The notes: a model not told the origin generated them from the letters alone. 64,000 nucleotides of DNA from a phage (GCA_014816185.1 GCA_014816185.1_4095.1), one strand, 5' to 3'; shown: positions 38,389-52,579, counted from the first letter of the stretch. Translations and numbers: made by a program.

Positions 38389-39051
38389 ATGATGAAATCA
38401 AAATTAGGTTTGTTTTATAAAAACTATTTTGTTAAACAACGTAAATTTATAAAAAAATATTTCTCTGGTGAGAAGTCTAGTCCTATAATTTTTAAAAGAC
38501 CAAGTTATAATACTTACTTAGCTGGTGCTAAACAGTCTAAGAAATTTATTACTCTTTTAAATAAAAACAAAATTAAAGCTTCTTATGTTGAAACGAGAAG
38601 AAACTCATCAATAACTCCTGGTGATTTTATTGAGTACGGATGTTTCAATATTAAGTATAATGATAATACATACTTTATGGATATTGATTGTAATACATCC
38701 AATCTTTTTAACATTGTAGTAAATCCATTAAAACAATATAATGTTTATGGTGATTCTATTATCAAATTAATCAAAAACAAAGATGGCTTTGATTTTGAAA
38801 TAAATGTTTTAGATGATAATTTTGACGAAGTACCCGTAAACCCTGAAATCTGTGATATTTTAAACAGTTTAAAAGGTAGTACCTACAATATATCATCTGA
38901 TTTAATGTTTCAGTACTCATTAATCCATAAAGATATTGAAAAGTATATTGAATGCTCCAGAATTTTGAATTTTCTCTATGATGAATTTAAAAAGAGTTCT
39001 AAAATAACTGCATACACTTTGTACAATATTCCTAAAATGGTGAATCTTTAA
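38389..39051 (+). CDS. hypothetical protein
   Basis: AAGGAG SD; convergent with the minus-strand array, 3' end overlaps the decayed paralog. Confidence 0.55.
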   Translation: MMKSKLGLFYKNYFVKQRKFIKKYFSGEKSSPIIFKRPSYNTYLAGAKQSKKFITLLNKNKIKASYVETRRNSSITPGDFIEYGCFNIKYNDNTYFMDIDCNTSNLFNIVVNPLKQYNVYGDSIIKLIKNKDGFDFEINVLDDNFDEVPVNPEICDILNSLKGSTYNISSDLMFQYSLIHKDIEKYIECSRILNFLYDEFKKSSKITAYTLYNIPKMVNL

Positions 39052-39455
39052 CAAATACAGTACTGGCAACTCCACCGTCTGTAATATATTGTCCAGTACT
39101 GTAAATTTGTATACCATCGGTTAAGTAAGTTCTGTATAAAGTTGCTGTAACATATACGTTATTCATATTCATCTCTATTGGTAGTACACATTTGGTATAG
39201 GCCGACACATCTGTTTGTGTACCTATACCCAATTGACCTGCGTTATCGCCTGTGTTATTACCAGTTGCGTAAACACCCAATGAAGTTATAATATGATTAG
39301 AAAAATATGAATAACCCAAACTCTTGAGATTCTCTACTGTACAACGTACCATCTGACATAAGGGCAAAAACTGTTGTATCAGATGAAGCTATTTTTGTTA
39401 CAGAAGGTTGTATGTTCTGTTTTGATGATGTGATAATTCTTCGAAAGGGTAGCAT
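39032..39455 (-). pseudogene. decayed RCC1-like array paralog
   Basis: Reading from 39455 gives MLPFRRIITSS... then a stop after about 50 codons; a second frame continues with GQLGIG motif and family C-terminus VFVKDSPF. Confidence 0.45.
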
Positions 39456-39527
39456 TGTATCCTCCAAATGTAAATCGTTATTATATTTAGGACAAAAAAA
39501 TGCCAGTACAAGGCACTGGCATAAAAT

Positions 39528-40697
39528 CTAAGCAGAAGGCATATCCTTCATCTTAATAAATGAAAATTGTGTACCAGTATTTGTGGTTTGATCAGTAAAA
39601 TATGAATTACTACCAGCCCAGTACAATTCATTATTAACTATACAATATATAACAGAACTCGAACTCTGTGAATACACACGACTTATATTTGATGGTTCTA
39701 CTCCAGTACTGAACTGAACCGAACCCAACTGTGAACTTGGTATCACATCAGTTGGTCTACCTAAACCATTAACACCAGCCCCACCACCACATGTATATAT
39801 CCCAGTACTATCAGTTGATATATTAACATAACCATTTCCAGCATTTTCAAATAGTATTTCACTGGGAACAACACCAAATCCTGTAAGATCTATTTTCCTG
39901 AATGTAGTATAAACCGTAGAACCGCCAACACCTCTTCCACCATAATCATTAGAACCAGCCATATAGATACTATATCCAGAACTTCCTAAACATAATAACT
40001 GTACGTTGTCATATAATATTTGCATAGATATAACGTTATCAGGAATACTCAATACCGTAAAAGTAGTTAAAGAAGAACTTCCAATATTACTACCAACCGA
40101 TGTTCCACATCTGTAGTACTTACCGCCCTTTATATAATGGAATGATGAACCACCTAATTTATGTGCTCCTATTGCACTTACCTCAGTATCTATGAGAATG
40201 GGAGATACAACTTTGTTATTAACACCTAACTCAGATCTACTGTTCATACCGAACCCATATAAACGACCATCTAACATCAATATTAGTGTACTACCGGAAG
40301 TACCCGCTGACGTAAATTCTATATTCTTTATTTGCGACACGTCAATACCTACAAATAATGAAGTTACTTCAGTCCAGTTAACATATGAACCACTAGCCCC
40401 AAAATATCCACCCATGTATAGACCTGCACAATATAATTTATTATCAACAGTCTTTATTAATGTACCGGATACACACGCCCAAAAATCATCAACTTCATAG
40501 GGTACATGTACCCAACCACCTAATACATCACTAGCATCCCCTGTACCTAATTTATAGTTCGAACCAGAACCACGCATGTACATATTCCCTGTACTATAAA
40601 GTAATCCGACATGTAATTGACTACCATCCAATTTCTTTATTTCAGGAAGAGTTGGTTTAATATTTCCGTACTTTAACATTCTTCCAAAAGGTAACAT
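39528..40697 (-). CDS. RCC1-like repeat protein, MLPF family
   Basis: Start set at conserved MLPFGRM (track ORF reads through the upstream cassette); AAGGAGG SD; GxNxxGQLG-type motifs. Confidence 0.7.
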   Translation of the reverse strand: MLPFGRMLKYGNIKPTLPEIKKLDGSQLHVGLLYSTGNMYMRGSGSNYKLGTGDASDVLGGWVHVPYEVDDFWACVSGTLIKTVDNKLYCAGLYMGGYFGASGSYVNWTEVTSLFVGIDVSQIKNIEFTSAGTSGSTLILMLDGRLYGFGMNSRSELGVNNKVVSPILIDTEVSAIGAHKLGGSSFHYIKGGKYYRCGTSVGSNIGSSSLTTFTVLSIPDNVISMQILYDNVQLLCLGSSGYSIYMAGSNDYGGRGVGGSTVYTTFRKIDLTGFGVVPSEILFENAGNGYVNISTDSTGIYTCGGGAGVNGLGRPTDVIPSSQLGSVQFSTGVEPSNISRVYSQSSSSVIYCIVNNELYWAGSNSYFTDQTTNTGTQFSFIKMKDMPSA

Positions 40698-51226: not shown

Positions 51227-51297
51227 ATTTCCCTCCTTTATTCATTATACTATATTTAATACAAAAAGAAATGCCAGTATCAAGTACTGGCATAATA

Positions 51298-52476
51298 TTA
51301 TCGGTTAAATTTAAAATCTGTTATGTGTGTCCATGTATGATTTAATGGTGTACTCAATGGTGTAAAGCCAGCAGGGTCTGACCACGTTGAACCACATGCG
51401 TACATAAATTGATTGCCAGTACAATCCATTATAGCATAAGAACGTGTTGCTGTACCACATTTGAATCCAACTGCACTACTTGGGGTCGGTAATACTTCAA
51501 ATGTAGGTGCATTTGAAGTATTACCCCCATTTTTTGTTCCAGCTATGTACAGAACTCCATTAGTATCAATGATTAAGTTAGTCCAATATGCTTGTTCTCG
51601 ACCAGCATAAAAATATGTTAAATCACCGGGTACAAATGGTAACGTACCTTTATATAGTGTAGTATTAACATCCACTGGTGCTCCAGATACACCCCATGAA
51701 CTCATATAGTTTCTCCCACTTGCGTAGAATGTAGTTCCTTTACCGTAAAGTATTAATGATGCATGACTTGTTCGCATTGCATTATATTCAAACTCAGGAT
51801 CATCAGTAGCGTCCTTAAAAATCTGTGTCCATGTTGTTATATAGCCAGTAGTTGTAACACCCATTTGATAATAATAATTATCACCAGTAGCATAGAATTG
51901 TTTAGGGCCAGTTTGTACAATTGCATTCCTATTAGTTAACCAAAAATCTAATGTATTAGTCATGATCTTGGTGGGTGTGAAATTCGCCACGGTATTTCCT
52001 TTTCCGAAATAACCCTTAGCGTTATCTCCATGACCCCATAAATCACCATTAGTTGTGCGTAGGAATAATGTACCAGAATTGAATACAACTTTTTCTATAG
52101 TACTTATATCAATACCAACAGAAGTGTAATTCGTTGTAAAATCTTGAAAAGTACCCCAAAAATTAGATGAACCATTAAACATGACTTGACTACCAGTGTA
52201 CTTCACTTTATTATCTTTAGTGATAAGTAATGTCCCCCACGATGCCGCGAACATTAACTTAACATTTTCCATAACAAAGTATGGCTTACCGTATGCTGAC
52301 GCGGTAGAGTTCAAACCTAATAGTTGTCTATTATTACTACAACCCCATACTTCGCCGTTATCCAAAAGCATCAACATAGTAGGTTTACCAGATAATACAG
52401 ACAAAAAGAAATCTTTTGGTGTTGGTACACCAGGTGCAATATTCCCATAATCAAACATTCTAACAAAAGGTAACAT
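51298..52476 (-). CDS. RCC1-like repeat protein, MLPF family
   Basis: First gene of the array; MLPFVRMFDYGNIAP; divergent promoter region 52477-52579. Confidence 0.7.
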   Translation of the reverse strand: MLPFVRMFDYGNIAPGVPTPKDFFLSVLSGKPTMLMLLDNGEVWGCSNNRQLLGLNSTASAYGKPYFVMENVKLMFAASWGTLLITKDNKVKYTGSQVMFNGSSNFWGTFQDFTTNYTSVGIDISTIEKVVFNSGTLFLRTTNGDLWGHGDNAKGYFGKGNTVANFTPTKIMTNTLDFWLTNRNAIVQTGPKQFYATGDNYYYQMGVTTTGYITTWTQIFKDATDDPEFEYNAMRTSHASLILYGKGTTFYASGRNYMSSWGVSGAPVDVNTTLYKGTLPFVPGDLTYFYAGREQAYWTNLIIDTNGVLYIAGTKNGGNTSNAPTFEVLPTPSSAVGFKCGTATRSYAIMDCTGNQFMYACGSTWSDPAGFTPLSTPLNHTWTHITDFKFNR

Positions 52477-52579
52477 AATTCCCTCCTTTATTCATTATAT
52501 CATATTTACCTCCTAAAGAAAACCCTTGACACCCTTTCAGTACTGGTGTACTATAGAAGGAATATAAGGAGAACTGTAC

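Follow-up and report, generated by a model that had tools for sequence, protein, structure and literature searches.

Minus-strand genes fill positions 39032-52579 of a 64,000-nucleotide stretch of phage DNA (GCA_014816185.1; the window, by which we mean the whole stretch analysed), where eleven intact members and one deletion remnant form a tandem array and all have an MLPFxRMxxYGN-like start, here called the head or tag. The reading we favour, and hold about as readily as we doubt it, is that the locus holds a repertoire of accessory virion proteins, probably surface adhesins, which are loaded by their tag and whose genes are shuffled by recombination. Each protein would consist of a short, flexible N-terminal tag and a self-contained, beta-rich domain of binding type. 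The tag most likely docks every protein on a common virion site, different bodies being loaded by one mechanism, and the bodies most likely lie on the particle surface as auxiliary adhesins for host-surface or environmental ligands. In Asteriusvirus each gene would form its own transcription unit, bounded by a cassette of about 70 nt with a terminator hairpin, a promoter and a Shine-Dalgarno site. This cassette and the first ~45 coding nt would together make up a direct repeat of ~115 nt, and homologous recombination between such repeats would delete, duplicate, reorder and exchange whole units between co-infecting phages.

The source of the window belongs to the Asteriusvirus jumbo coliphages (PBECO4/121Q/phAPEC6 group). 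The array region matched 37 phage records, all of them Asteriusvirus-type jumbo coliphages or Salmonella phages (SP27, SHEFM2K, PBECO4, 121Q, phAPEC6, G17), which bears out the phage origin given in an earlier note on this DNA, and SP27, SHEFM2K and related phages are 95-99% identical to the window across much of the array. In GenBank the genes are annotated as 'regulator of chromosome condensation' or 'putative DNA condensation protein', a label that covers about 12 genes in each of at least 37 sequenced jumbo-phage genomes and whose only basis is the eukaryotic homologue. The earlier note had taken the arrangement to be undescribed, which does not hold for the array itself: multiple RCC1-like copies in 121Q and PBECO4 were listed in 2017 in the paper on phage CBB (PMC5259590), and the 'eleven similar RCC1-like proteins' of phAPEC6 were discussed in 2020, with speculation on DNA ordering or inner-body formation (PMC7247149). 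Papers of 2026 still name the genes chromosome condensation regulators, and a jumbo-phage review of that year leaves them unmentioned. The searchable literature yielded nothing on the MLPF head common to the members, on its occurrence with folds other than RCC1, on the cassette at the junctions or on shuffling between phages; the shared tag, its presence on unrelated folds and junction-mediated shuffling are the parts for which we found no published description. The array genes did not prove to be a known, characterised tail-fibre family, a possibility that the earlier note had raised against itself. An Ostreococcus virus paper that seemed to tie RCC1 to a viral hypervariable region matched solely through 'RCC' culture-collection strain numbers.

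The phAPEC6 record (MK817115) contains at least two intact head-bearing members, of F-type and C-type, that carry no coding-sequence annotation (~19470-20655 and 23175-24284), so that the published count of eleven is probably too low. In the same record gp002 is annotated with an upstream-extended start.

The head is a conserved module joined to unrelated bodies

The heads of the array members are about 79% identical to one another and the bodies about 23%. The head consensus reads M-[LI]-P-F-x-[RK]-[MIL]-hydrophobic-x-Y-[GA]-N, and in a 20-member family alignment the only invariant residues other than glycine were M1, L2, P3, F4, R6, Y10 and N12. As DNA, the exact head ATGTTACCTTTTGNNAGAATG had 11 matches (0.04 expected by chance), all on the minus strand within 39032-52579 and none elsewhere in the 64 kb. 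In an AlphaFold2 (AF2) model of g7, the seventh intact gene, residues 1-19 had a low predicted local distance difference test (pLDDT) score and lay outside the propeller with weak helical character, while head residues 1-10 of g9 were modelled as disordered (pLDDT below 50).

Nine Asteriusvirus arrays gave 90 unique junctions, in which the codons of the head were counted. Without change of the amino acid, Y10 was spelt TAC in 52 and TAT in 36, G11 as GGG in 58 and GGA in 27, P15 as CCT in 35 and CCA in 33, and R6 as AGA in 80 and AGG in 10. This balanced synonymous usage at positions 6, 10, 11 and 15 shows that selection acts on the head peptide and not on the DNA alone. Codons 2-4 (TTA CCT TTT) were near-invariant in their nucleotides within Asteriusvirus (89-90 of 90), and position 9 was K in 50 of the 90 heads and E in seven.

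A tblastn search with the head found it across the Rak2-like jumbo phages, namely Asteriusvirus, GAP32, CBB, the Eneladusvirus group, Munch/7t3 and fENko-Kae01. Nine CBB genes (CBB_536, 537 and 548-554) start with MLPF..(Y)(G/A)N, followed by Kelch propellers, Laminin_G_3/ConA-like domains or members of a GAP32_002-like family, and in Serratia phage BF, Munch and fENko-Kae01 the head stands on RCC1, glycine-rich and LamG_3 proteins. In CBB other synonymous codons encode MLPF and the Asteriusvirus cassette is mostly missing, which makes peptide and cassette separable. Relatives of the g9 body in other phages and metagenomes have a different N-terminus (MLELL, MIELM, and MFEMML in PVP-SE1 gp19), joined to the conserved body at the same point. 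Judged from sequence, the head is a module used on unrelated folds: RCC1, Kelch, ConA-like lectin and glycine-rich. A donor-strand or 'velcro' role for it was rejected, since the same head serves these four. An exact-pattern scan of IMG/VR for the head DNA returned 121Q, CBB and three chance matches with short open reading frames (ORFs), and no new body types.

Glycine-rich-domain proteins of other phages have short N-termini of their own (MLELL, MIELM, MFEMML), and PVP-SE1 gp40 starts with MYPIPCLF, reminiscent of the MLPFPIIS heads of Serratia phage BF; the PVP-SE1 loci concerned are 9791-10633 and 19070-20884. Short tags at the N-terminus may be more general.

Ten bodies are predicted beta-propellers and one a glycine-rich domain

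Pfam RCC1 and/or RCC1_2 scored above the gathering score in ten of the eleven intact proteins, with g9 having neither, and the whole-domain model WD40_RLD gave 60-96 bits, under its gathering score of 150. An RCC1-type propeller was modelled for one member, g7 (predicted template modelling score 0.82), in which it starts at about residue 20. The top Protein Data Bank (PDB) matches of this model were the seven-bladed RCC1-like domains of UVR8, RPGR, RCC1 and HERC2 (template modelling (TM) score 0.65-0.81, E down to 5e-20). The earlier note had predicted RCC1-like beta-propellers and proposed profile searches and structure prediction as the check, and both agree with it. Ten bodies are classed as RCC1-like seven-bladed propellers and one as a glycine-rich domain; the note's array of twelve RCC1-like genes stands as to its eleven intact minus-strand genes and one decayed copy, but one intact gene, g9, is not RCC1. 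A word-indexed protein search with g7 returned 13 relatives, nearly all from Asteriusvirus, the bodies being too divergent for this kind of search.

The g9 protein has no Pfam match. It matches phrog_4474 at 1e-68, and its relatives carry the glycine-rich domain PF21722. Its AF2 model has a pLDDT of 91.7. A profile search against PDB sequences gave an insignificant galectin match only, and Foldseek gave weak matches (TM 0.21-0.28) to a fibre of cyanophage Pam3, the tail tip of mycobacteriophage Bxb1 and the glycine-rich domain of ALK, which are hints only. The g1 protein weakly matches phrog_20500, a 'tail protein'. The array proteins have isoelectric points (pI) of 5.1-8.1, about 6% K+R and about 40% S/T/N/G.

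Tagged proteins are present in virions

Published mass spectrometry of phAPEC6 virions detected gp003, 005, 006, 007, 009, 010, 549 and 551, all of them array members (PMC7247149). GAP32 gp001 is a structural protein verified by mass spectrometry, and the CBB virion proteome contains CBB_536, 537, 548, 549, 551, 552 and 553, seven of its nine tagged proteins, with coverage of up to 50.7% (PMC5259590). Sixteen tagged proteins have in total been found in particles of three phages, with RCC1, Kelch, Laminin_G_3 and still unclassified bodies, and the shared tag is the simplest common cause of the virion presence of so diverse a set; the tag would then be what brings about incorporation. Retention of the head was read from the deposited CBB peptide list, which includes LFEYANVIIPPNYK (CBB_536 residues 7-20), YANVIVEYATK (CBB_548 residues 10-20) and VVSNEYEINLDFSR (CBB_553 residues 15-28). 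With head peptides present in the virion list, the tag is not removed and is retained in the mature particle. Of the roles that the earlier note had offered, virion decoration is the one to which the published mass spectrometry specifically points.

Whole units are shuffled at the junctions

The intergenic gaps of the array are 70-78 nt, with the exception of g2-g3 (8 nt). Within them a cassette has the order hairpin GCCAGTAC-N3-5-GTACTGGC, T-run, motif TATTAAATATAGTATAATGAATAA, AAGGAGG (Shine-Dalgarno site) and ATG. The putative promoter motif TATTAAATATAGTATAATGAATAA occurs as eight exact copies and one with two mismatches (before g4), in the array only within the window, with none expected by chance. 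The cassette precedes nine intact genes, g2 and g4-g11, and not eight as in the earlier note, which had also given it to the decayed copy, where the version is in fact divergent; the note was right that the first gene has a more divergent upstream region (46-73% identical to the other junctions). Ten minus-strand terminator-like hairpins stand one after each of g1 and g3-g11, and the region has 19 terminator-like sites, compared with 6.1 +/- 2.5 in shuffles. As g3 lacks a cassette and starts 8 nt downstream of the g2 stop, it is probably co-transcribed with g2.

The cassette holds TTAAATA plus a perfect TATAAT. In a scan for sigma-70 -35/-10 pairs no cassette passed, and the region had 59 sites against 66.9 in shuffles, that is, no enrichment; the best -35 candidates in the cassettes match 2-3 of six positions. 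A sigma-70 or a MotA-type middle promoter was considered for the cassette, and both its spacing and its -35 or MotA-box matches are poor. The authors of the CBB and GAP32 studies proposed a T4-late-like ATAAATA motif before structural genes. The array promoter would be late in its timing. A 17-bp perfect inverted repeat at 51488-51525, inside the g1 coding sequence, was scored as a plus-strand terminator-like site.

Bodies were sorted into types at 55% identity in nine arrays of 10-15 members each, which gave 31 types whose order differs between phages that are otherwise 97-99% identical. The order is A B C D E F G H I J K in the window, A B C D E F I H M L J K in SP27, X B C G E D F I M Y L K in G17 and R D C B G F I H M L J K in phAPEC6. 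In megablast pairs (SP27, G17, phAPEC6, SHEFM2K) every homology block ends on one side ~35-50 nt inside a head and on the other 11-70 nt upstream of its own ATG, and neighbouring blocks overlap by the junction of ~115 nt. The rearrangement breakpoints all lie in this junction. Within one phage pair the identity of units ranges from 74% to 99% and the synonymous divergence (dS) from 0.006 to 1.2, indicating that the units have independent histories. Each body type is under purifying selection, with a ratio of nonsynonymous to synonymous divergence (dN/dS) of mostly 0.05-0.3, so that the bodies are not hypervariable in the mutational sense, as the earlier note had called them. Type A and its closest relatives, at low divergence, gave a dN/dS of about 0.9-1.0.

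Surface display is weighed against other roles

A conserved head on diversified binding modules, as the earlier note had it, fits this evidence, and of the host-range, decoration and anti-defence roles it left open, decoration of the virion is the one we favour. In favour of a position on the surface, T7-type tail-fibre proteins of the Pseudomonas phages PollyC and Littlefix carry RCC1-like propellers as their C-terminal part, and PVP-SE1 gp40, an RCC1 propeller with immunoglobulin (Ig)-like domains, is the last gene of the tail-fibre cluster of that phage. Unexplained hair-like fibres are present on the head and tail of 121Q, phAPEC6 and CBB. We lean the same way on account of the tail-protein PHROG of g1, the lectin-type fold of LamG_3, the neutral-to-acidic, S/T/N/G-rich composition and the weak structure matches of g9. 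Surface display, roughly an even call, is ranked ahead of internal cargo, which we think unlikely, and DNA condensation is most improbable.

Several points weigh against surface display or against the tag-loading scheme as a whole. GAP32 has tagged proteins, yet the CBB authors leave open whether it has hairs (PMC5259590). PVP-SE1 gp19, a glycine-rich relative, sits among replication genes and not tail genes, and an anchor of 15 residues is far shorter than the known anchor domains of receptor-binding proteins. The phAPEC6 virion list also has thymidylate synthase, a RecA-like protein, SSB and topoisomerase, and since evidently non-structural proteins occur in jumbo-phage preparations, detection is no proof of a structural role; the peptide counts for the phAPEC6 members are low as well (1-5). 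In the stretch of the fENko-Kae01 GenBank record examined, the glycine-rich member alone of the array is flagged as detected, although in that preparation, a crude ultrafiltrate, 220 proteins were detected, and little about the make-up of the virion can be learnt from it. The cassette promoter has no sigma-70 -35 and resembles the T4-late-like ATAAATA motif of CBB just loosely. Lastly, both the placement of the tagged proteins on the outside and their docking partner are inferred.

The tag could instead be a loading signal for the lumen of the capsid or tail, with the proteins packaged inside and ejected with the DNA as variable binders of host proteins in anti-defence or takeover, which we judge unlikely. 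Divergent proteins that share a short, conserved N-terminal peptide and are encoded in a plastic locus reportedly make up the pattern of the T4 internal proteins (IPs) and their capsid targeting sequence (CTS) (Mullaney and Black; Repoila and colleagues). The T4 CTS is helical, and the weak helical character of the head in the AF2 model is CTS-like. An inner body has been seen in 121Q and phAPEC6, and propellers and Kelch domains also serve protein-protein interaction. A model for such loading is offered by the toxins of extracellular contractile injection systems (eCIS), which, according to 10.1101/2023.11.13.566157, are loaded through N-terminal signal peptides. Set against this, mature CBB virions still contain head peptides, while the T4 CTS is lost by cleavage, and the hydrophobic-x-Glu protease motif is missing from most Asteriusvirus heads. 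The T4-type model, which needs that cleavage, is contradicted by the retained CBB peptides and by E at position 9 in only 7/90, a variant with uncleaved cargo being compatible with both. Precedents among lectins or fibres exist for all four body folds, and rigid propellers of 40 kDa would need unfolding for passage through the tail tube. The suggestion behind the database name and in the phAPEC6 paper, that these are DNA-condensation or inner-body proteins organising the 350-kb genome in the head, is harder still to credit. It draws on the RCC1 name, on the binding of nucleosomes by eukaryotic RCC1 (3mvd is among the fold matches), on the inner body of phAPEC6 and 121Q, for which no phiKZ inner-body homologues were found, and on the presence of array proteins in virion preparations. 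The condensation name goes back to Ran-GEF or chromatin-binding activity; the pI range and the low K+R content are unlike those of a DNA-compacting protein, and the bacterial host is not known to have Ran. Sister phages put the same tag on Kelch, ConA-like lectin and glycine-rich bodies and CBB has no RCC1 member at all, which makes the body fold dispensable. The array content differs between near-identical phages, unlike a core packaging component, and the peptide counts are low compared with those of major head proteins.

It is also conceivable, though we give it very little credence, that the head has no role as a protein and that its 5' ~45 nt are kept by gene conversion, translation initiation or mRNA structure as part of the repeated junction. 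The near-invariant nucleotides of codons 2-4, the continuity of the head with a highly conserved cassette and the recombination that does happen at the junction would all suit this explanation. Against it speak the balanced synonymous changes at Y10, G11, P15 and R6, which leave the amino acid as it is, and the survival of the peptide motif in CBB, Munch and BF, whose MLPF codons differ and whose cassette is missing or of another kind; the head is also attached to a body family that elsewhere uses another N-terminus.

Tag-loaded display on the surface, our preferred reading, would have a more general and more tentative form, in which MLPF is a 'plug-in' virion-display tag of the Rak2-like jumbo phages at large, any tagged beta-rich binding domain clips onto a single docking protein in the hairy fibres of head and tail, and junctions like the PeSL (promoter-early stem-loop) cassettes of T4-type phages let phages trade plug-ins. 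We entertain this as possible and would not press it. If true, each phage would wear a different combinatorial adhesin coat, its members taken from a common pool that counts at least 31 types in nine genomes, and a tag of 15-20 residues would be enough to display foreign proteins on a jumbo phage, which would be useful for phage display and engineering. Tag loading also offers a testable account of the 'hairy' appendages and of strain-level differences between therapeutic jumbo coliphages. For naming, the evidence points away from 'DNA condensation' and towards tag-based loading of accessory virion proteins.

Genes and cassettes of the array

The eleven intact genes, all on the minus strand, are numbered from the high-coordinate end, and the head of each starts at the upper coordinate given. 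With the exception of g9 all encode the head followed by a predicted RCC1-like propeller. The first, g1 (51298..52476, 392 aa, type A), has a Pfam RCC1 score of 22.6 bits against a gathering score of 21.7. It is followed by g2 (50024..51226, 400 aa, type B), supported by ORF, Pfam and head match, and by g3 (48906..50015, 369 aa, type C), the gene without a cassette. For g4 (47696..48835, 379 aa, type D) a longer ORF was also called, which is an upstream extension running through its cassette. Next come g5 (46476..47624, 382 aa, type E), g6 (45217..46404, 395 aa, type F), the AF2-modelled g7 (43981..45144, 387 aa, type G) and g8 (42766..43908, 380 aa, type H). The shortest member, g9 (41957..42694, 245 aa, type I), has the head on a glycine-rich-domain body, and the array continues with g10 (40776..41885, 369 aa, type J) and g11 (39528..40697, 389 aa, type K). 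Four of these have phAPEC6 orthologues that were seen in virions, namely gp003 (g7), gp005 (g8), gp009 (g10) and gp010 (g11). The remnant of a twelfth member (39032..39455, minus strand) begins with the diverged head MLPFRRII and is cut short by a stop codon after 52 codons; it also keeps a C-terminal fragment, which lies in another frame. It aligns with 121Q genes 234/235 in two blocks, between which ~720 bp are deleted, and we take 39032-39455 on this basis to be a deletion remnant.

The cassettes are likewise on the minus strand. That before g2 (51227..51297) has terminator hairpin, T-run, promoter motif and Shine-Dalgarno site, and in that before g4 (48836..48905) the two mismatches of the promoter motif give TATAAC. 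Sequence reading, hairpin scan and motif scan placed the others before g5 (47625..47695), g6 (46405..46475), g7 (45145..45216), g8 (43909..43980), g9 (42695..42765), g10 (41886..41956) and g11 (40698..40775). The divergent region upstream of g1 (52477..52579) has a weaker hairpin, CACCAGTACTGAAAGGGTG, followed by GATATAAT and AAAGGAGG, and the divergent cassette before the remnant (39456..39527) has the hairpin ATGCCAGTGCCTTGTACTGGCAT and then a T-run.

Features surrounding the array

A second tandem array, divergent from the RCC1 array, lies on the plus strand at 52580-57382 and consists of about 22 small paralogous genes (59-78 aa) with a recurring ..EYY.. start and ..VLKLI.. end, interrupted by a gene of 219 aa at 54579-55238. 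It is followed at 57400-59300 by an ORF-free stretch with at least 12 copies of the palindrome TCAGTACTGA, several of which (58048-58077 is one instance) occupy the spacer of a sigma-70-like promoter. The arms of the terminator hairpin in the array have the same sequence as the core of this palindrome, CAGTAC/GTACTG. Repeats with a period of 8 nt occur at 58440-58600 and the GC skew changes sign within 57400-59300, a stretch that may, from these features, be an early-promoter or origin hub.

Just upstream of the far end of the array, four tandem paralogues encoding small hydrophobic proteins (104-141 aa) lie on the plus strand at 36927-38346; CBB_539-547, annotated as putative membrane proteins, appear to be their syntenic counterparts. 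The sole RNA gene that ARAGORN and Rfam found in the window is a tRNA-Thr (TGT) at 837-910 on the plus strand.

Comparison with known systems

The multi-copy RCC1 genes of the Rak2-like phages (121Q_234-248, PBECO4, phAPEC6 gp001-010 and gp549-551, GAP32 gp001) are the same locus and the same gene family, for which copy number and virion detection have been published. That work treated them as RCC1 homologues possibly condensing DNA.

The junctions resemble the cassettes described as PeSLs in T4-type phages by Arbiol et al. (2010, PMC2839356) and Comeau et al. (2014, PMC4122927), small repeated composites of a stem-loop terminator and a promoter between variable genes. In both systems close relatives differ by indels, replacements and reorderings whose crossovers fall inside the repeat. 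A repeated composite of terminator and promoter (the latter predicted from sequence) and breakpoints in the repeats were both found in the array, and a sigma-70 early promoter was not. PeSLs carry consensus sigma-70 early promoters and flank unrelated ORFans, whereas the array promoter has no -35, the repeat reaches ~45 nt (~15 codons) into the coding sequence, and the flanked genes are paralogues encoding virion proteins. The PeSL idea, that of regulatory repeats as recombination handles, would in this way be extended to late, structural and paralogous genes outside the classical T4-like phages.

With the T4 internal proteins (IPI-III, Alt) the array shares an N-terminal peptide of ~10-15 residues common to divergent particle proteins and a plastic locus. 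The prohead protease cuts the T4 sequence at hydrophobic-x-Glu, and the T4 cargo lies inside the particle, whereas the head of the array is retained and has no conserved Glu. Sets of several receptor-binding proteins in one phage (the CBA120 tailspikes, the K1-5/G7C adaptors, the PhiK64-1 depolymerases) resemble the array in architecture: they combine a constant N-terminal attachment with a variable C-terminal host-interaction domain and exchange their modules between phages. In those sets the anchor is a folded domain, ~100 residues long or longer, and is carried by trimeric fibres or beta-helices, in contrast to a linear motif of ~15 residues on monomer-sized propellers or lectin-like domains, which have no depolymerase domain and whose attachment is presumed. 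The propellers of PollyC, Littlefix and PVP-SE1 gp40 have the same fold (Foldseek E 1e-15 to 1e-19), but occur as long fusions with fibre shafts or Ig-like domains, one copy in each phage. The propellers of the array differ from these fibre-tip domains in standing alone, in bearing the tag and in numbering ten or more per genome.

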